This document shows, one piece after another, positions 17,037 to 47,513 of a stretch of 64,000 nt of DNA. The notes below the pieces were generated by a model that saw only the letters and a list, made by a program, of their open reading frames with translations, made no database searches and was not told the origin of the DNA. Source of the DNA: an uncultured bacterium (GTDB lineage Bacteria; Patescibacteriota; Minisyncoccia; UBA6257; 2-01-FULL-56-20); contig OY970382.1 of the NCBI GenBank assembly GCA_963719425.1, positions 586,880 to 650,879 on the forward strand, given 5' to 3'. The translations under genes were made by a program, and so were the position numbers. How positions within the stretch are numbered: the stretch's first letter is position 1; every line of letters starts with the position of its first letter.

Positions 17037-17113
17037 ATCCTCCTTATTCTATGCGGCGCGAGGGGCGTCCGCAACTGTGCATTGGGCCGGATTAAAAAAT
17101 TATTAAGGAATAC

Positions 17114-39039: not shown

Positions 39040-40737
39040 ATGACCATAAAAGAGCTCGTGAAGAAACAACCCGACAGCCTGATTGGCAAAGCATACGCCT
39101 TCGCTCTCCGCGTGCACAAAGCGCAACAAAGGAAAACCGGCGAGCCCTATTTTAATCACCCGCTCGCGACTGCGGAAACGTTGAATGGGTGGCATCTTGA
39201 CGAAGACACGATTGCTGCGGGTCTCCTTCATGACACCGTGGAAGATACCGGTATTCCTCTTGAAACCGTAAAAAAGGATTTCGGGGACGATGTCGCATTC
39301 CTTGTGGACAGCGTGACGAAACTCGGCCACATCAAATACCGCGGCGCGGAAAACCGGGCGGAAAATCTTCGCAAGATGATCCTTGCACTTTCACAAGATT
39401 TGCGCGTCGTTTTCATAAAGCTCGCTGACCGCCTCCATAACATGCAGACGCTCGCGGCCCTCCCGCCCGCAAAGCAAAAGCGGATCGCGGTGGAAACGGA
39501 CGAGATCTACGCGCCGCTCGCCTACCGCCTCGGCATGCACAATCTTTCCGGCGAATTGGAAGATCTCGCATTCCCCTACCTCCATCCTACCGAGTACCGA
39601 TGGCTCCTCTCTACGGCGAAAGAACAATACAAAGAGCGGCTCGCATATCTCTTAAAGATGAAGCCGCAGGTGCGCAAGCTCCTTGAGGAACACGCGATCA
39701 AGCCGCTGGATATTGAAATCCGGGCCAAACGTTACGCCAGTCTGTACAAAAAACTTCTGCGCCGCGACATGAACATGGGGAAAATCTACGACCTCGTCGC
39801 GATGCGCGTGATCGTAGCCACCGTCCCCGAATGCTACGCGGCACTCGGCGTTATCCACGAAGCATGGCCGCCGGTTCCTCACCGCATCAAGGACTACATC
39901 GCCTTGCCGAAGCCGAACGGCTACCGCAGTTTGCACACCACGGTGATCGGCCCGGATGACAAAACAATTGAGTTTCAAATACGGACGAGGAAAATGCACG
40001 ACGAGAACGAATACGGCGTCGCCGCGCACTGGCTCTATGACCAGAAGCGCCGCGGCGAAAAAATTTCCGGGAAACAGCTTGCGGAAGACCTCTCCTGGGT
40101 GCAACAACTGAGAGCTTGGCAAGAACGGTTCTTTGGCGGGGGAGAAAAACCGCAAGAGTTTTTGGACGCGATGAAAATTGACTTCTTCCGCGGACGCATC
40201 TTCGCCGTCACGCCGCGCGGCGACGTCATTGACCTGCCGCAAGGCGCCACGCCCGTGGATTTCGCGTACCACATCCACTCTGACGTCGGGAACGCTGCTG
40301 CGGGGGCGCGGGTGAACGGCACGCTCGTGCCGCTCGACCACAAGCTGAAATCGGGGGACGTGGTCTATATTATCACTCAAAAAGGAAAAAAGCCGTCGGA
40401 CGACTGGCTCCGCTTCGTCGCGACTGGCATCGCCCGCGATCACATTCGCGCGGCGCTCCGCGAGAAAAACAGGTTCGTGCGCATGGCGAAAGCGCCCACG
40501 CACGCGGAACTGAAGCTCACCGTGGAGCCCCGCATCGGCCTCATTAAAAACATTTCAGAGGTGATTGCACGCCAGCACCTCGCCATCATGAACTTTTACA
40601 CCGAAAACCCGAGAGGGGGCCGCTACCAGTTCTATCGGATTGAAATCAAAACCGCCGACAAGGACAAAATTGAAAAACTGATCGTCAAGCTGAAAGCGAT
40701 AAAAGAAGTGAAGGAGGAAAGTTACAAATTAAGTTAG
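39040..40737 (+). CDS. rel: bifunctional (p)ppGpp synthetase/hydrolase (RelA/SpoT homologue)
   Basis: HD domain (HDTVEDT), a synthetase domain (YRSLHTTVIGPDDKTIEFQIRT), TGS and a C-terminal ACT-like region. Confidence 0.9.
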   Translation: MTIKELVKKQPDSLIGKAYAFALRVHKAQQRKTGEPYFNHPLATAETLNGWHLDEDTIAAGLLHDTVEDTGIPLETVKKDFGDDVAFLVDSVTKLGHIKYRGAENRAENLRKMILALSQDLRVVFIKLADRLHNMQTLAALPPAKQKRIAVETDEIYAPLAYRLGMHNLSGELEDLAFPYLHPTEYRWLLSTAKEQYKERLAYLLKMKPQVRKLLEEHAIKPLDIEIRAKRYASLYKKLLRRDMNMGKIYDLVAMRVIVATVPECYAALGVIHEAWPPVPHRIKDYIALPKPNGYRSLHTTVIGPDDKTIEFQIRTRKMHDENEYGVAAHWLYDQKRRGEKISGKQLAEDLSWVQQLRAWQERFFGGGEKPQEFLDAMKIDFFRGRIFAVTPRGDVIDLPQGATPVDFAYHIHSDVGNAAAGARVNGTLVPLDHKLKSGDVVYIITQKGKKPSDDWLRFVATGIARDHIRAALREKNRFVRMAKAPTHAELKLTVEPRIGLIKNISEVIARQHLAIMNFYTENPRGGRYQFYRIEIKTADKDKIEKLIVKLKAIKEVKEESYKLS

Positions 40738-41924
40738 CTCTCCTTCCCGAGCCGGCGCAGAATATTTTCCAATTCTTCTTCCGAATAAAAGGTGATGGTG
40801 ATCTTCCCGGTATTCGCGCCCTTGTGAATTGTGACGGGAGCGCCGAGATCCGTGGAAAGCGACTCCTGCATCGCTTTGAGTTCCGGCGGCAGGGGCGCTT
40901 CCGCACTTTTCGGGGGACGACCGCGGCGGCGCCCGCCCGCAACACTGCTGCCGAACTCACCCACGCGCTCTCTTACGTCGCGCGTCGTGAGCCCATGATG
41001 CACGACATCCTCAAAGAGGCGCTGTTGCGCGCCCGGATCCCGAATGGCCAGAAGCAGTCGCGCGCTGCTCTCGGAAATCTCCCCTCTTTCCACCGCCGTC
41101 CGGACGTATTCCGGAAGGTCCAAAAGTCGCACGCTGTTTGCAATCACTTCGCGCGACTTGCCGAGCTTCACCGCAATCTCGCGCTGGGTCATCCGGAATT
41201 CCTCCTGCAGCCGCTGGAACGCGCGCGCGGCCTCTATCGGATTCAAATTCTCGCGCTGGATATTTTCCAAAACGGCGAGCTCCAATTTTTCGCGTTCAAG
41301 ATCCACGTTCCGGATAATAGCGGGTACCGTCGCAAGCCCGAGCATCCTTGCGGCCAGAAGCCGCCGCTCACCCGCGACCAATTGATATGCAACGCCTACG
41401 CCCCCGGCAGTTTCCTTTTCAATGCGCGACACCACAAGCGGCTGCAAAAAGCCGAACTCGCGAATGGAATGCGCGAGGTCGCGAAGCCCCGCTTCGTCAA
41501 AATTCCTGCGCGGCTGGTTCGGATTCGGCGTTATCCTATCCACTTCAATATGAAAGACCGAGCCCATTTCCTGCGGTTCGCCCCTAAACGCTTTCGCTGC
41601 AACCGACGCGGGAGAAACCGTTGGTTGTGGTTGCGGCTGTGCGGGTTGCGGTTGAGGCTGGGGTTGTGAAATCGGCGCGGCTGCTGGCGCCTCAACCAGT
41701 GGCACTGGCCGCGACACTTCTTGCGGCACCGCATCGGCGTGCACAATTTCCGTTTCCGAATCCGGCGGCAGAGCCGGCGACCGCGCGGCCGGTGGTTGCG
41801 AAGCCAGCGGCTGCGATGACGGAACATTCTGCCCGCCGCCGTTCCCGTTACCGCCGCCACCGCCACCACCGCCGCTTCCATTCCCCTTCTTCGGTATTAA
41901 CGACTCAAGTCCTTTGCCGAGCAT
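40734..41924 (-). CDS. parB: chromosome partitioning protein ParB with a low-complexity Gly-rich and (QP)n N-terminal insertion
   Basis: ParB box ISPNPNQPRRNFDE...LAHSIREFGFLQPLVV and HTH. N-terminal G9...QPQPQPQP tract. Confidence 0.9.
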   Translation of the reverse strand: MLGKGLESLIPKKGNGSGGGGGGGGNGNGGGQNVPSSQPLASQPPAARSPALPPDSETEIVHADAVPQEVSRPVPLVEAPAAAPISQPQPQPQPAQPQPQPTVSPASVAAKAFRGEPQEMGSVFHIEVDRITPNPNQPRRNFDEAGLRDLAHSIREFGFLQPLVVSRIEKETAGGVGVAYQLVAGERRLLAARMLGLATVPAIIRNVDLEREKLELAVLENIQRENLNPIEAARAFQRLQEEFRMTQREIAVKLGKSREVIANSVRLLDLPEYVRTAVERGEISESSARLLLAIRDPGAQQRLFEDVVHHGLTTRDVRERVGEFGSSVAGGRRRGRPPKSAEAPLPPELKAMQESLSTDLGAPVTIHKGANTGKITITFYSEEELENILRRLGKES

Positions 41925-41936
41925 ATGTGCAGTAAA

Positions 41937-42755
41937 TCAAATATTGAAATTCCCGAAATTTTCGCTCGCGACGACCTCCCGCGGCAGATTGAAGTCCTTT
42001 TCCTGTTCCATGATCTCGTCCGCGAGTCGTTTATACGCCGTGGCCCCCGGCGAATCCGGCCGGTATAAAATAATCGGCTTTGAAAAACTCGGTGCTTCCG
42101 CGAGCGCGACCGCGCGCGGAATCTCCACGTCAAACACGTGATGCGGGAAATGTCGCCGGAGGTTCTTAGAAACCTCGCGGCTCAAGTGCTCACGTTTGTC
42201 ATACATCGTGACGAGCGCGCCGGCGACGCGGAGCGGATGTCTTAAGTTATTCCTGATAAGCTCCACGGTTTCCAAAAGCTGCCCTATACCTTCCAGGCTG
42301 TAATATTCCGTCTGCACGGGGATCAAAACCTCGTCCGCGGCGACTAGGCCGTTCACGGTAAGCAGGCTCAAGCTCGGCGGCAGGTCAACGAGAACGTAAT
42401 CGTAATTGTGCCGCAGCCGGTTCACGAACTTCCGCAAAAAATATTCACGGTCGGGGACGTCCACGAGTTCAACAAGCGCGCCTGCCAGATGCGGCGCCGC
42501 GGGCACAAGATGGTAATTGAAAATTATGGTCGGCTTTACAATCTGCTCGCACGGCACAGTTCCCAAAATACCGTGGTACACGCTCAACTCCTCTTTTATG
42601 TCGTGGCCGAGCGCCGAGCTTGCGTTCGCCTGTGGATCAAAATCAATCAGGAGCACGCGGCGCCCCGCGGCAGCAAGATACGCGCCCAAATTAACCGCGG
42701 TCGTGGTCTTCCCCACGCCCCCTTTTTGATTACAAATTGCGATCACGCGCGCCAT
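41937..42755 (-). CDS. parA: chromosome partitioning ATPase ParA/Soj
   Basis: Deviant Walker A KGGVGKTT. Confidence 0.95.
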   Translation of the reverse strand: MARVIAICNQKGGVGKTTTAVNLGAYLAAAGRRVLLIDFDPQANASSALGHDIKEELSVYHGILGTVPCEQIVKPTIIFNYHLVPAAPHLAGALVELVDVPDREYFLRKFVNRLRHNYDYVLVDLPPSLSLLTVNGLVAADEVLIPVQTEYYSLEGIGQLLETVELIRNNLRHPLRVAGALVTMYDKREHLSREVSKNLRRHFPHHVFDVEIPRAVALAEAPSFSKPIILYRPDSPGATAYKRLADEIMEQEKDFNLPREVVASENFGNFNI

Positions 42756-42833
42756 ATAGCTTGATTTTAGCGCGTAAAATAACTATTATCAATCGTGCGA
42801 GCGCGCGAGGTTACAGCCCCACGCGTCCCACGC

Positions 42834-42916
42834 GCCCGGGTGGCGGAATGGCAGACGCAATCGCCTCAAGAGCGATCGGCCGTAAGGCCATGCGAGTTCG
42901 ACTCTCGCCTCGGGCA
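42834..42916 (+). tRNA. tRNA-Leu (anticodon CAA)
   Basis: Type II tRNA with acceptor GCCCGGG/CTCGGGC (one G-U pair), anticodon loop CTCAAGA and long variable arm GGCCGTAAGGCC. CC is encoded. Confidence 0.85.
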
Positions 42917-42975
42917 CCGCGAGAATTTAACAAAAACTTAATACTTATTTAATGCCGCGTTGGTAGTATAGTGTC

Positions 42976-43683
42976 GTGCCCAAAAGAAGGTTACCGCCAA
43001 AGAATTTCGAATGGACGCCGAAACTTGCGTATGTGGTGGGGCTTTTGGTAACCGATGGGAATTTATCAAAGAACGGACGGCAGGTTATTATGCGCTCGGC
43101 AGAGCTTCCATTGCTCGAAACTTTTAAACAATGTCTCGGCATTGACGCAAAGATTGGAGTCGCAAAGAAAAAGACCGGCGATGTTTCCTATCGGGTGCAA
43201 TTCAGCAATGTCCAATTCTATGACTGGTTGCTCAGGATAGGACTATTCCCCGCAAAAAGTTATACAATAGGTCGTATTGACATCCCAGATAAATTTTTCC
43301 GGGATTATTTCCGCGGCTGCATAGATGGCGACGGCAGTATCCAAACCTATAAAGATAGTTATAATGTTTATCGCGGGCGGCGATATAGCACGCAACGTCT
43401 CTTTATAAAACTTGTTTCGGCGAGCGAAAAACACATTCGCTGGGCACGCTATAGAATAAATAATCTCGTAGGAATTTGCGGTGCGATTATAAGAAATAAA
43501 CCTGCCAGCGAAAATCGAGTTCTGATGTGGGAATTAAAATTCGCCAAGAAAGAATCACTACGCTTAATTAACTGGATGTATTATGCGCCAGATATTCCTT
43601 GTTTAGAACGAAAACGAGCGATTGCCCGAAACGCGCTCGCTATCATAAAGCAAGAAAAGCGACGCGAATACAGCCGAATATAA
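42976..43683 (+). CDS. LAGLIDADG homing endonuclease (two-motif, free-standing)
   Basis: Motif 1 LAYVVGLLVTDGNL and motif 2 FRGCIDGDGSI. GTG start. It lies between tRNA-Leu(CAA) and tRNA-Leu(UAA). Confidence 0.8.
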   Translation: MPKRRLPPKNFEWTPKLAYVVGLLVTDGNLSKNGRQVIMRSAELPLLETFKQCLGIDAKIGVAKKKTGDVSYRVQFSNVQFYDWLLRIGLFPAKSYTIGRIDIPDKFFRDYFRGCIDGDGSIQTYKDSYNVYRGRRYSTQRLFIKLVSASEKHIRWARYRINNLVGICGAIIRNKPASENRVLMWELKFAKKESLRLINWMYYAPDIPCLERKRAIARNALAIIKQEKRREYSRI

Positions 43684-43695
43684 TCTGAAGCAATG

Positions 43696-43779
43696 TGCCC
43701 GGGGTCGGGATCGAACCGACACGCTCTTGCGAGCAGGGGATTTTAAGTCCCCTCTGTCTACCGATTTCAGCACCCGGGC
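43696..43779 (-). tRNA. tRNA-Leu (anticodon UAA)
   Basis: Acceptor GCCCGGG/CCCGGGC, anticodon loop CTTAAAA, variable arm GCTCGCAAGAGC and T-arm GTCGG-TTCGATC-CCGAC. Confidence 0.85.
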
Positions 43780-43791
43780 AAATCGGGTTGG

Positions 43792-43864
43792 AGGCCTGGG
43801 CGGGAATCGAACCCGCGTATATGGGTTTTGCAGACCCATGCCTTGACCATTTGGCTACCAGGCC
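43792..43864 (-). tRNA. tRNA-Cys (anticodon GCA)
   Basis: Acceptor GGCCTGG/CCAGGCC, anticodon loop CTGCAAA and T-arm GCGGG-TTCGATT-CCCGC. CCA is encoded. Confidence 0.85.
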
Positions 43865-43875
43865 GTTCCTCAATC

Positions 43876-44205
43876 TTACTTTTTTAGGAGCGCTTTTTCA
43901 ACCGCCGCGGCGTTCTCCACGCCATGATCAATATAGAACGATATCCGCGGCATCGGTTTGATATTGATCTTCTTCATCAAAAGATGCTGGAGATAGCCCG
44001 TGCGCTTTTGGAGTTCGGCGAGCGCGGCGTCGCCCGCAGACGACGGGATTGCACTCACGCTGACCTTCGCACGCTCCAACTTTTTATCCACCGTGACCCC
44101 GGTAATCGTGACAAGGGCGTCGGGGAACTCAACTTCGCGGATAATGATCTTTGAAAGTTCCGCACGTATTAATTTGCCGACCCGCTCGGAACGAAAAAAG
44201 CGCAT
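43876..44205 (-). CDS. rbfA: ribosome-binding factor A
   Basis: RbfA KH-like pattern ...RVGKLIRAELSKII...VTITGVTVDKKLERAKV... Confidence 0.85.
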   Translation of the reverse strand: MRFFRSERVGKLIRAELSKIIIREVEFPDALVTITGVTVDKKLERAKVSVSAIPSSAGDAALAELQKRTGYLQHLLMKKINIKPMPRISFYIDHGVENAAAVEKALLKK

Positions 44206-44212
44206 TGCGAAA

Positions 44213-45793
44213 TTATTTACGAATGACGAGCGTGTCGCCTGTTTTGATCAAAACCTGCGAGTTCGCGAGTACACCAATCTCCTTTCCTTTTTCCGCCTGC
44301 GTGATTTCCGATTTCTTCTCGCGCAAGTTGAGGACGCGGCCCGTGCCGACCGCCACTTTCGGCATATCACGGGAAGCACCTTCCGCAGGAGCACCCTTCT
44401 CGCGAGCGTCTTTCTCAGAAACGGCCTCCGCCGCGCCGCGCCGCAGAATTTCAAACGACGCCTTTTCGCGGAAGATACCCTTCATGACGCGCCCCCCTAC
44501 GAGCTGCTTGTCTAATTTCTCTTGATTGAAAACCGCAAGCACCTCAAGCTCCCCCGCGGCCACCGGACCCAATCTTCCGGCAAGAAAATCTTCCACGGCC
44601 TTCACGAGATCGTAGACGATTTCCGAGGTAATGATCATGACGGACTGCGCATCCGCAAGATTCCGCGCTCCCTTCTCCACTTTATTTTTAAACCCGATGA
44701 TCGTAGCGTGCGTCGCCTGTGCGCGCCGCACATCGCCGTCGGTCACATCCCCCACCGATTCCTCAACCACATTGACCTCTTTGCCCCCCTGCTTATCAAC
44801 GCTTTTCAAGATCACGGAAAGCGCTTCAAGCGATCCGGCGTCGGAAGCTTTGAGAATCAGGTTCAGCGTATTCGGTTTTGATTTTGCGATCTGCGTGGCG
44901 ACCATAGTGCGCTGCGCAGGTGACGCGGCCTCCTTAATTTCTCCCACCGCGAATTCCTCCCCGACTTTCGGAAGCCCTTCAAAACCAATGATAACCGCAG
45001 GCGCAGACGGCTCCAAGCTCGCCGTGGACCTCCCGGCAAAATCCTCAAGCATCTTCACTTTGCCGCTCGCCGTGCGCGTCGCGACCAGATCACCGCGGTG
45101 GAGCGTCCCGTTTTTTACGATCACACTCGCTTCAACGCCGCGCCGCGGATCACGCCGCGCTTCAAGGATATAACCGGAAGCCGGCGCTTTCGGATCGTAG
45201 GTTAAATTTTCCATGTCGGAGGCAAGGAGCACGAGGTCTAAGAGTTCGTTCACTCCCTCGCCCGTCTTTGCGGAAACCCCGTGATAGCTCACCTGCCCAC
45301 CGTAACCCTCAAGCATCACCCCGGCGTTCATCAAGTCCGTTTTTGCCTTTTCAAGATTGCCGCCCTGCACTTTGTCAATTTTGTTGAACGCGACAATGAA
45401 CGGCGTCTTCGCGTCCTCCAAAATCTTGATGGATTCTTTTGTTTGTGGCTTCACCCCTTCGTCCGCGGCAACAACAAGAATCGCCATGTCCGCCGTCTGC
45501 GCCCCCCGCGCGCGCATCGCCATGAACGCCTCGTGCCCGGGCGTGTCAATAAAGGTAATCTTCCGCGGCGCACTCGCGTTTCCCTCCTTAGCTCCCGCCG
45601 GTGCGTGCACAATCTCGTACGCACCCACGGCCTGCGTGATACCGCCCGCCTCCCGCGCCGCAACGGTTGTCTTTCGAATGTAATCCAGAAGCGTCGTCTT
45701 CCCGTGGTCCACGTGCCCCACGACAACCACGATTGGCGGGCGCGGTTTTATATTCCTGCTCGCAGTTTTTACATTTTCACTTGCCATAACCAA
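44213..45793 (-). CDS. infB: translation initiation factor IF-2 (short form without an extended N-terminus)
   Basis: G-domain [17 protein letters not shown] and NKID. C-terminal beta-barrels. Confidence 0.95.
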
Positions 45794-45854
45794 TGAAATG
45801 TAGCAAAAAACATTGATAAAAACAAGTTTCTCGTGTACGTTTAACGAGTGCGCT

Positions 45855-45941
45855 GGAGGCGTGGCCGAGTGGTTTAAGGCAGCATCCTGCTAAGATGTTA
45901 AGGGAGAAATCCCTTCGAAGGTTCGAATCCTTCCGCCTCCG
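45855..45941 (+). tRNA. tRNA-Ser (anticodon GCU)
   Basis: Type II tRNA with acceptor GGAGGCG/CGCCTCC, anticodon loop CTGCTAA, a long variable arm and T-arm AAGG-TTCGAAT-CCTT. Confidence 0.85.
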
Positions 45942-46052
45942 CCCGTTAGGGCATCGGTTCGAGAGACCTTCCGGCCTCGGATTTTGCTATCTTTTTGAAA
46001 CGCAGTTCAGGCGACGAATCGCGACAGGTGTCTAGGACTCGAACCTCAAGAT

Positions 46053-47513
46053 CTAATAAGCCGCGGTCACCGTCCGATGATACGGCTTTTCGTGCTTGCT
46101 CTTGTCTTGCCCCATGAGCCAGAGGTGATCATTGATGCCAATAGGCATGACTCGCTTGCCGATCTTTTCGAGTTCCTGTCGGATGAATTCAATCGCCCAG
46201 ATAGTGTTTGCGCGGATATCGATCTCTTCCTGTTCGCCGTGGATCAGAGGAGTTTTGCTGTCCACCTTCTCCGCCAGACTTTTTGTATACGAGATAATAC
46301 CCAGCGTCCTCAACGACTGTGGAAGCTTGTAATCAGCGCATGCGGTGAGTCGCTCGGCGTTCGTGAGATTACCGTAGCCCTTCCTATCGAAAAGTTGGTA
46401 GATGTCGGCGACCAAGAGCTGCGCTCGCTTGTAAAATTCAATCTTCTGGCCGTAGAAGATGGCGGTGTCGTCAAATGAGGGAAAGTTCCGGATGATGTGT
46501 CCCAAGAGTTTCACGGCGTCGCCATTGGCTTGTTTCACGAATTCTGTGAAGCTGCCTCCATTGTTTTTCATAAGGTGGGCGGCGACCTCCTTCGTGATTT
46601 TCCATCGCTCTTCAAAGAGCGGAATTTCCACGTTGCCTCCCAAGATTTCTTGATATTCTCTTCTGCTTATCTTCGATCGGTATTTCGCGTCCAGAATCGG
46701 CTTGCCGTTCTCAAGCGCCCGCAGGATGGCGGCCACCATGCCCCATGAACCGTCGTAGCGCTCGCCGCGATATTCTACCATCCACTTCGGATCGCCCCAG
46801 TAGCAGAAGCTCGTGGAGTTGAAGACCAAGAGGAAGTTCAGTTTCTCTTCGTCGCTCAAGTGCGAGAAGCTCAACGGGGAGCCGCTTAGCCAATGTAGAA
46901 CATTGCGATGCTTGAATGTTTTGGCGAATTCGGTGATTTTCTCTCTATCGATTTTTACATACTTCGACTTCTCGACCGCGATCCGGGTCGTTTCCAAAAC
47001 CTTGGGTTCTGCAATGATAAGGAACAGTTTTATGGTCGACTTGAACCCTTCCGTATATTTCTTCGGATTCGCCTGCATGTCCTTCAAAACGTTTTCTGGC
47101 TTTGCCCAGTACACGCTCTTGACCTCGTCCTCTTTGAGCCGCACAGGATTTGCCTTGCAGACGTATACCCTGAACATATGCCTGCTATCGAACGCCTCAC
47201 CGTCGAAGTTCTTACCGACGTCGCGGGCTTGTGTCGAACCTATACTGCGCAGCTGAACGCCCGCGACGCCAAGCTCTTCTTCCAATTCGCGCTTGGCCGC
47301 AACGAAGTATTCCTCTCCGGCATCTACGTGGCCCGCCGACGAATGATCAAGATGGCCGTCTTTCGCCCGCTCGTTCACGAGAATTTCTCCTTTGTCGTTC
47401 ACGAGGTAAATGACGGCGACCCGATGGAGCAGTCCTTCTTTATGCGCCTTCCGGCGCGTTACCTCACCAATCACATTGTCGCGGTCGTCGACCCAGATGA
47501 CATTATTGTTCAT
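46053..47513 (-). CDS. Nudix hydrolase fused to a Qng1/DUF2419 queuosine-salvage domain
   Basis: N-terminal Nudix box GHVDAGEEYFVAAKRELEEELGV. The C-terminal roughly 330 aa carry FYKRAQLLVADIYQLF, ADYKLPQSLRTLGII and EEIDIRANTIWAIEFIR, which match conserved Qng1 (C9orf64) blocks. Confidence 0.7.
   Translation of the reverse strand: MNNNVIWVDDRDNVIGEVTRRKAHKEGLLHRVAVIYLVNDKGEILVNERAKDGHLDHSSAGHVDAGEEYFVAAKRELEEELGVAGVQLRSIGSTQARDVGKNFDGEAFDSRHMFRVYVCKANPVRLKEDEVKSVYWAKPENVLKDMQANPKKYTEGFKSTIKLFLIIAEPKVLETTRIAVEKSKYVKIDREKITEFAKTFKHRNVLHWLSGSPLSFSHLSDEEKLNFLLVFNSTSFCYWGDPKWMVEYRGERYDGSWGMVAAILRALENGKPILDAKYRSKISRREYQEILGGNVEIPLFEERWKITKEVAAHLMKNNGGSFTEFVKQANGDAVKLLGHIIRNFPSFDDTAIFYGQKIEFYKRAQLLVADIYQLFDRKGYGNLTNAERLTACADYKLPQSLRTLGIISYTKSLAEKVDSKTPLIHGEQEEIDIRANTIWAIEFIRQELEKIGKRVMPIGINDHLWLMGQDKSKHEKPYHRTVTAAY

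Follow-up and report, generated by a model that had tools for sequence, protein, structure and literature searches.

A free-standing LAGLIDADG endonuclease family linked to the tRNA-Leu(CAA) gene of uncultured bacteria, a probable homing element

To our knowledge, reports of homing endonucleases in cellular bacteria are almost confined to introns and inteins, and free-standing ones are known mainly from phages and organelles. The gene considered here is a free-standing gene of the LAGLIDADG class that lies directly behind an uninterrupted leucine transfer RNA (tRNA) gene, tRNA-Leu(CAA), in a 64,000-nucleotide (nt) stretch of contig OY970382.1 from an uncultured member of the Patescibacteria (hereafter the window). 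Among bacteria of the Candidate Phyla Radiation (CPR), LAGLIDADG genes lie in insertions or introns of the 16S and 23S ribosomal RNA (rRNA) genes, tRNA being unmentioned (PMC11270868), and in phage T4 the GIY-YIG endonuclease SegB is free-standing in a tRNA cluster, cuts the tRNA region of a related genome and drives the inheritance of its own gene and of flanking tRNA genes (PMC2330249). Our literature search found no description of tRNA-linked LAGLIDADG genes in the bacteria studied here. The enzyme class and the homing principle are known; the tRNA-Leu(CAA) niche and the apparent use made of the tRNA gene seem to be undescribed.

Comparison of related loci points to a selfish homing endonuclease, site-specific and specialised on the tRNA-Leu(CAA) locus, that is expressed as part of the tRNA transcript, a reading that we regard as probable, with some reserve. 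It is preferred because the site is fixed in two phyla and two gene orders, several LAGLIDADG lineages use it, presence is patchy and the catalytic centre is intact. Six homologues (54-73% identity) were examined on long contigs, and each directly follows a tRNA-Leu(CAA) gene of the same strand; in all six the endonuclease gene is divergent from parA-parB and followed by differing genes. A metagenome scan with the family alignment added 80 further loci with homologues of 42-68% identity, 79 of them with enough flank, and tRNA-Leu(CAA) is the immediate same-strand neighbour in 78 of these 79: directly upstream in 62, with or without parA nearby, and directly downstream in 16, there usually followed by tRNA-Ala(GGC). 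At the last locus a contig end interrupts. A second leucine tRNA gene, tRNA-Leu(UAA), adjoins the endonuclease only in the window and in the related loci L001 and L007, which form the window's own small clade.

The 16 tRNA-downstream loci belong to high-G+C hosts and encode proteins with an extra N-terminal helix-turn-helix (HTH) domain, forming a sister clade in which the gene lies 6-144 nt (mostly 6-71 nt) upstream of the tRNA-Leu(CAA)-tRNA-Ala(GGC) pair (Table 1). Searching with one HTH-clade protein retrieved 1,281 homologues at E<=1e-20, the named ones from Rokubacteria, and searching with the window protein retrieved 760, whose named sources are all uncultured Patescibacteria-type bacteria. 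The family is thus large, spans at least two phyla and two gene orders, and has the tRNA-Leu(CAA) gene as its genomic niche.

Presence at this niche was assessed with the parB-parA genes, host backbone that served to locate empty sites in relatives. A ParA scan of species-representative genomes gave 80 loci with 93-49% ParA identity to the window, and the parA/tRNA-Leu(CAA) pair is found in 70 of them and is therefore an old host backbone. Behind the tRNA of these 70 paired loci, a homologue of the endonuclease occurs in four (L027, L053, L055 and L059); four further loci carry other, distantly related LAGLIDADG_3 genes directly after tRNA-Leu(CAA) (Table 1). By sequence, the tRNA-Leu(CAA) site is one that several endonuclease lineages use. 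The closest relative, L013 (ParA 93%), has no endonuclease, and its tRNA-Leu(CAA) is 1 nt different, at a variable-loop base (GTAA in the window, GCAA in L013). The blastn homology between the two covers 39123-42918 of the window and stops exactly at the tRNA 3' end (L013:3859). Other relatives have 1.2-3.2 kb of varying genes between tRNA-Leu(CAA) and tRNA-Leu(UAA), and several such intervals hold an open reading frame (ORF) of 314-341 amino acids (aa) conserved at 77-86% identity.

The first six look-ups had suggested parA linkage as a sign of a vertically kept endonuclease, and the ParA scan overturned this candidate, which was rejected because the parA/tRNA pair is conserved host backbone, the endonuclease is rare and many homologues lack parA. 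Endonuclease and ParA distances correlate only weakly (r = 0.34, Mantel p ~0.001), compared with r = 0.71 for ParB versus ParA, and the nearest neighbour of a locus by endonuclease is also its nearest by ParA in some cases but not in others. A homing element should show just such long residence within lineages, frequent absence and some discordance, whereas a universally kept gene should not. One fixed site with patchy presence marks a mobile element, here as a pattern from comparison with no transfer event seen.

The gene itself appears complete. An earlier, sequence-only reading of this DNA had described a complete two-motif LAGLIDADG ORF with a GTG start in a tRNA-Leu(CAA)/tRNA-Leu(UAA)/tRNA-Cys cluster, and Pfam, ARAGORN and an alignment of 28 homologues (51-73% identity to the window protein) bear this out. 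Pfam LAGLIDADG_3 matches the 235-aa protein with 29.7 bits (cut-off 22.5), its profile covering motif 1 only; motif 2 was recognised from the alignment and the fold, outside the profile match. The two motifs read LAYVVGLLVTDGNL and FRGCIDGDGSI, the former ending VTD27-G28 (Asp27 = GAT, 43054-43056) and the latter DGD119-G120 (Asp119 = GAC, 43330-43332). With both Asp intact, the acidic LAGLIDADG residues are free of the inactivating substitutions that would have counted against the earlier reading, and across the 28 homologues both are invariant, within a total of 41 invariant positions. The distances of 60 and 13 nt given in that reading to the two tRNA-Leu genes were nearly right: the gap from tRNA-Leu(CAA) to the ORF is 57 nt (ARAGORN) or 59 nt (Rfam), and that from the stop codon to the 3' end of tRNA-Leu(UAA) is 11-12 nt. 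Within the open frame no start codon precedes the GTG at 42976, an in-frame stop lying 9 nt before it, and this GTG is supported by the conserved N-terminus MPKxKLPxKxFxWTP, which aligns from residue 1. The public protein P0001, of 197 aa, begins at Met39 (ATG at 43090), and because this call starts 38 codons late it lacks motif 1 and Asp27; in practical terms, the public annotation deletes the first catalytic motif.

The AlphaFold2 model of the window protein, built from the homologue alignment (predicted local distance difference test, pLDDT, 90.3; predicted template-modelling score, pTM, 0.87), has two pseudo-symmetric alpha-beta-beta-alpha-beta-beta-alpha halves. Foldseek against the PDB placed I-Tsp061I first (E 4e-12), followed by E-DreI/I-DmoI, intein endonucleases, maturases, WhiA and the I-OnuI group, and the top 50 matches listed are all of LAGLIDADG fold (homing endonucleases, engineered variants, intein endonucleases, the bI3 maturase and WhiA). 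No NCBIfam family matches the window endonuclease, and phage and plasmid collections held no close relatives of it, only sequences of 24-30% identity. Judged by sequence and model, the ORF is an active-looking monomeric two-domain LAGLIDADG homing endonuclease, with DNA cleavage as its predicted activity. Ratios of nonsynonymous to synonymous substitution rates (dN/dS) of 0.04-0.23, in homologue pairs free of saturation, show that the gene is under purifying selection. Its G+C content is 0.44 versus 0.55 in the flanks, 11 points lower; across the family, endonuclease and host G+C rise together (r 0.94), the endonuclease lying a constant ~7 points lower, and low G+C as a mark of recent transfer was rejected on account of this constant offset and host tracking.

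Strong purifying selection, the invariance of the catalytic residues and about 40 positions, and a G+C content adjusted to each host would also suit a domesticated LAGLIDADG host protein with a function linked to tRNA-Leu(CAA), in processing, regulation or a DNA transaction, that is inherited vertically and repeatedly lost. The partial agreement of nearest neighbours with ParA, the linkage to one tRNA kept over two phyla and two gene orders, and the gain of an HTH domain in the Rokubacteria-type clade, as in domesticated WhiA, point the same way. We nevertheless consider domestication unlikely, as only those four of the 70 species-representative relatives carry the gene and the closest one lacks it, the site also hosts unrelated LAGLIDADG genes, and at least one copy looks degenerate. 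This copy (L124:2399-2752) fits the family profile over part of its length in one frame, has an aberrant dN and is probably frameshifted and decaying. Furthermore, the WhiA-like combination of lost catalytic acids and near-universal presence is not seen, and WhiA (3hyi) is only the 10th Foldseek match.

The proposed selfish element also has to be set against an origin from an intron or intein. tRNA-Leu(UAA) is known to host group I introns, and the sequence-only reading had entertained a relic of an intron-encoded endonuclease, left after a group I intron was lost from tRNA-Leu(UAA), an idea favoured by that gene lying 11 nt downstream in the window and being such a host. An Rfam scan of 41500-46500 at E<=10 returned only tRNAs and no intron family, and a gathering-score scan of 20 related loci returned only tRNAs and no intron core. 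All three tRNAs of the cluster are complete in Rfam (51-71 bits), both tRNA-Leu genes among them, and the 776-bp interval between the two intact tRNA-Leu genes holds the endonuclease ORF only. A group I or other intron around the ORF was ruled out by these scans and the intact flanking tRNAs, and an intein-associated endonuclease was ruled out since LAGLIDADG_3 is the sole domain match and the full length folds as an endonuclease core. The earlier statement that the ORF is inside neither an intron nor an intein is thereby upheld, and the gene stands as its own, intergenic between conserved genes, which is to say free-standing. The relic itself is very improbable: beyond the missing intron signal in the window and the 20 related loci, the gene is convergent with tRNA-Leu(UAA) rather than inside it, tRNA-Leu(UAA) adjoins in only three lineages against 78/79 for tRNA-Leu(CAA), and the best structural matches are enzymes of archaeal rRNA introns and of inteins. 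The other proposal of the sequence-only reading, an endonuclease that targets tRNA-Leu genes, fits the family linkage and sporadic presence, with the tRNA concerned being Leu(CAA) and not Leu(UAA).

The arrangement of tRNA and endonuclease gene bears on how the latter may be expressed. Across non-redundant tRNA-upstream loci, the start codon lies a median 6 nt beyond the tRNA end (ARAGORN), with 46/63 spacers <=12 nt. Spacers this short cannot accommodate a promoter, and most are also too short for a Shine-Dalgarno sequence. The simplest inference is that the endonuclease would be co-transcribed with the tRNA, and that the 5' end of its messenger RNA (mRNA) would be made by tRNA 3' processing. 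In the window, a promoter-like site upstream of tRNA-Leu(CAA), found by consensus scan (Table 1), is likely the source of a transcript that would carry both tRNA-Leu(CAA) and the endonuclease ORF.

The window's clade (window, L001, L002, L007, L093 and L095) has an A+T-rich spacer of 43-57 nt. That of the window contains TTAATACTTATTTAAT at 42938-42953 and a -10-like TAGTAT at 42964-42969, which is separated from the GTG by 6 nt; the 57 nt of this spacer hold no Shine-Dalgarno sequence, and a promoter scan of it calls no sigma-70 promoter. An alignment of nine spacers shows a conserved TTTAAT...TTTAAT repeat, and in five of the clade's six members (window, L001, L002, L007 and L093) a TA(n)(n)AT hexamer stops 6 nt short of the start codon; in L095 the hexamer-to-start gap is 14 nt and itself contains GAGGG. 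A promoter role for the window spacer would be a guess from these motifs. The TTTAAT repeat also stands behind the tRNA in L018 and L062, which have another LAGLIDADG gene, and in L021, which has no endonuclease. Counted over the whole window, TTAAT-N5-8-TTTAAT occurs twice, versus 0.14 expected by chance, the second copy lying at 17091-17106(-) in a different arrangement; in one clade the same pattern is conserved after tRNA-Leu(CAA) (L001, L007, L018, L021, L062, L093 and L095), whichever endonuclease is present or none. Among endonuclease-free loci, L043, L044, L048 and L058 have an ATG 0-12 nt after the tRNA-Leu(CAA) 3' end, and the candidate frames after the tRNA in L044 and L048 open with similar sequences. 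Tight packing of tRNA and mRNA may thus be general in these genomes and not specific to the endonuclease.

Behind the gene, a partial direct copy of the 3' part of tRNA-Leu follows the stop codon in 11/62 occupied loci (z>=4.7), or in up to 16 by eye (Table 1). These fragments begin 0-35 nt after the endonuclease stop, usually run from tRNA position 57-63 to the 3' end, start at the anticodon arm (31-34) in two loci, and differ from the intact upstream tRNA, frequently within the acceptor strand; in L127 two copies lie in tandem, and in L162 the stop codon lies inside the fragment. Such copies suggest an insertion event in which the 3' third of the tRNA gene took part and duplication preserved a complete tRNA, and they could act as the second homology arm in repair. 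Fragments also occur without an endonuclease in L080, L042, L076 and L061 (and L085 by eye), 30-210 nt after the intact tRNA-Leu(CAA), perhaps as scars left by elements since lost or by integrase-type events.

An integrase-type island at the tRNA-Leu(CAA) 3' end, of which the endonuclease gene would be a passenger, a remnant or a minimal cis-mobilisable form, and in whose mobility the endonuclease would play no part, draws on the same fragments. They begin at the T-arm (57-63) or the anticodon arm (31-34), the two places within tRNA genes where integrases classically cross over, as Williams is said to have described in 2002; they are also present in the endonuclease-free L042, L061, L076 and L080, and the region after tRNA-Leu(CAA) varies between relatives. 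Set against this, no integrase was found in the window interval or beside the gene in L001-L012, and the supposed island would consist of the endonuclease gene alone, with the fragments 0-35 nt after its stop. Neither a tRNA 3' end copy nor att-type repeats were found anywhere in the 64-kb window, and the only component that recurs throughout, in more than 70 independent loci, is the endonuclease. We hold such an island to be distinctly improbable, somewhat more so than domestication, and all three rival explanations to be less likely than a selfish element.

The selfish, tRNA-specialised endonuclease that we favour nevertheless faces several results that weigh against it. Endonuclease G+C tracks that of the host and nearest neighbours often agree with ParA, so much of the inheritance would be vertical and transfers perhaps rare. 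The enrichment of tRNA fragments is borderline, 11/62 occupied versus 4/64 empty loci within 1 kb (Fisher p 0.057), and the window locus has no such fragment. No tRNA base separates occupied from empty loci in column comparison or variable-arm tables over the whole family. As the tRNAs of the window and L013 differ by one base, a target wholly inside the tRNA would also exist in the carrier. The sequences downstream of empty sites are not conserved, which is awkward for a classic site spanning the insertion point.

A tRNA base marking resistant alleles was sought as a candidate and rejected, only covarying stem pairs that follow lineage being found. Distances between the tRNAs correlate weakly with endonuclease and ParA distances (r 0.19 and 0.21, respectively); L109 and L121 share ParA at 94% yet their tRNA at 62%, and endonuclease-free pairs differ likewise. 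In 11 genomes with ParA ~80% identical (window, L001, L007, L014-L016, L021-L023, L054 and L062), mean pairwise identity is 0.78 for Leu(CAA), 0.76 for Leu(UAA) and 0.80 for Cys. This divergence speaks neither for nor against the tRNA gene moving together with the endonuclease, as in the mobile cassette that the sequence-only reading had entertained, because unlinked tRNAs vary just as much. The tRNA changes in those 11 genomes are mostly compensatory stem changes, and the tRNAs are unusually variable.

From these comparisons we infer DNA cleavage, target position, repair route and expression mode in the following form. The endonuclease would make a double-strand break at the tRNA-Leu(CAA) locus, and repair would copy its gene from the occupied allele, with the tRNA gene as the main homology arm and, in some lineages, the leftover copy of the tRNA 3' end as the other. 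The gene would land a few nt behind an intact tRNA, where it would need neither a promoter nor a ribosome-binding site of its own, and would be transcribed with the tRNA, whose 3' processing would leave an almost leaderless mRNA; in the window's clade, the A+T-rich spacer, possibly with its own promoter, would replace the tRNA-processing route. A wider and more tentative proposal, which we regard as possible but short of probable, is that the roughly two thousand homologues retrieved by the two sequence searches, in at least two phyla, represent an unrecognised homing element for which tRNA-Leu(CAA) is target, portable homology arm and expression platform at once.

What stands out in either case is a large free-standing family faithful to one uninterrupted tRNA gene and seemingly borrowing tRNA transcription and processing signals. 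If these proposals are true, they would extend the known modes of persistence of homing elements, and the homing targets known from the reduced Patescibacteria genomes would come to include tRNA as well as rRNA genes. A tRNA serving as a portable arm would allow jumps between genomes otherwise unlike at the locus, and repeated breaks would account for the change of gene order precisely at the tRNA 3' end, including, possibly, the recurrent gene-order breakpoint beside parA. The family would also offer a natural set of meganucleases with a guessable target, the tRNA-Leu(CAA) gene region.

Coordinates of the features are collected in Table 1. The tRNA cluster of the window is followed by rbfA and a short infB, and its ParB (40734-41924, -) has a low-complexity N-terminal extension of ~110 aa, with a poly-Gly run and PQ repeats, before the ParB_N domain. 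At the position of the window's tRNA-Ser(GCT), L007 carries a serine recombinase gene (L007:7288-8768) beside tRNA-Ser(GCT), which makes this a possible second site of tRNA-linked variation. L001 has an HTH-LAGLIDADG gene at the corresponding position, beyond infB (L001:7637-8653(+)); a LAGLIDADG gene in L015 (L015:1339-2136(+)) ends inside or just before tRNA-Cys, and another in L018 (L018:2-469(+)) lies just before tRNA-Leu(UAA). The association of LAGLIDADG genes with tRNAs may therefore be broader than the tRNA-Leu(CAA) family.

Table 1. Features of the window and of related loci (L numbers), with positions in the window unless a locus is named
Feature	Location	Strand	Description	Basis
Free-standing LAGLIDADG homing-endonuclease gene (predicted)	42976-43683	+	235 aa, GTG start	ORF list; Pfam
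tRNA-Leu(CAA)	42834-42918	+	intact, no encoded CCA	ARAGORN; Rfam 51.1 bits
tRNA-Leu(UAA)	43695-43779	-	intact, convergent with endonuclease ORF	ARAGORN; Rfam 53 bits
tRNA-Cys(GCA)	43789-43864	-	intact; context, outside the element	ARAGORN; Rfam 71.4 bits
A+T-rich spacer	42919..42975	+	57 nt	sequence
Promoter-like site TTGATT-17-TATTAT	42761..42789	+	upstream of tRNA-Leu(CAA)	consensus scan only
parB-parA operon	40734-42755	-	divergent from tRNA-Leu(CAA)	Pfam AAA_31/CbiA/ParA, ParB_N/HTH_ParB/ParB_C
tRNA-Ser(GCT)	45854-45944		NUDIX/queuosine-salvage gene comes next	
Other LAGLIDADG_3 genes	L018:3229-3849, L062:3229-3834, L033:3204-3848, L084:3152-3823	-	directly after tRNA-Leu(CAA)	
tRNA-downstream clade	L143, L147-L152, L156, L160, L163-L171 (e.g. 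L156:2312-3265)		HTH added	
tRNA 3' fragment loci	L059, L106, L107, L110, L112, L119, L125, L127, L130, L131, L137, L155, L162, L165, L172			

Among known systems, the I-Tsp061I/I-DmoI class shares fold and size with the window protein (template-modelling score 0.62-0.70 to 2dch; phmmer E 0.02), including two LAGLIDADG helices that each end in an acidic residue followed by Gly. The window protein is only 17% identical to it, bacterial (Patescibacteria) and encoded beside a tRNA, whereas that class is archaeal and encoded in rRNA introns. WhiA (DUF199) likewise has a two-domain LAGLIDADG fold encoded in the bacterial chromosome, and the Rokubacteria-type clade, too, joins this fold to an HTH domain. 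WhiA is without catalytic acids and is conserved and near-universal in its host clades; the tRNA-Leu(CAA) family, in contrast, keeps both Asp and is patchy. The LAGLIDADG genes of CPR rRNA insertions belong to the same phylum and superfamily and are patchy and site-specific in conserved RNA genes, which has been taken as a sign of homing, but they interrupt their host RNA gene, whereas the window's tRNA stays uninterrupted. T4 SegB belongs to another nuclease family, is phage-borne and shows no family-wide fidelity to one tRNA gene; as a free-standing endonuclease among tRNA genes it is nonetheless the closest functional parallel, and by this analogy the window element probably works like it.

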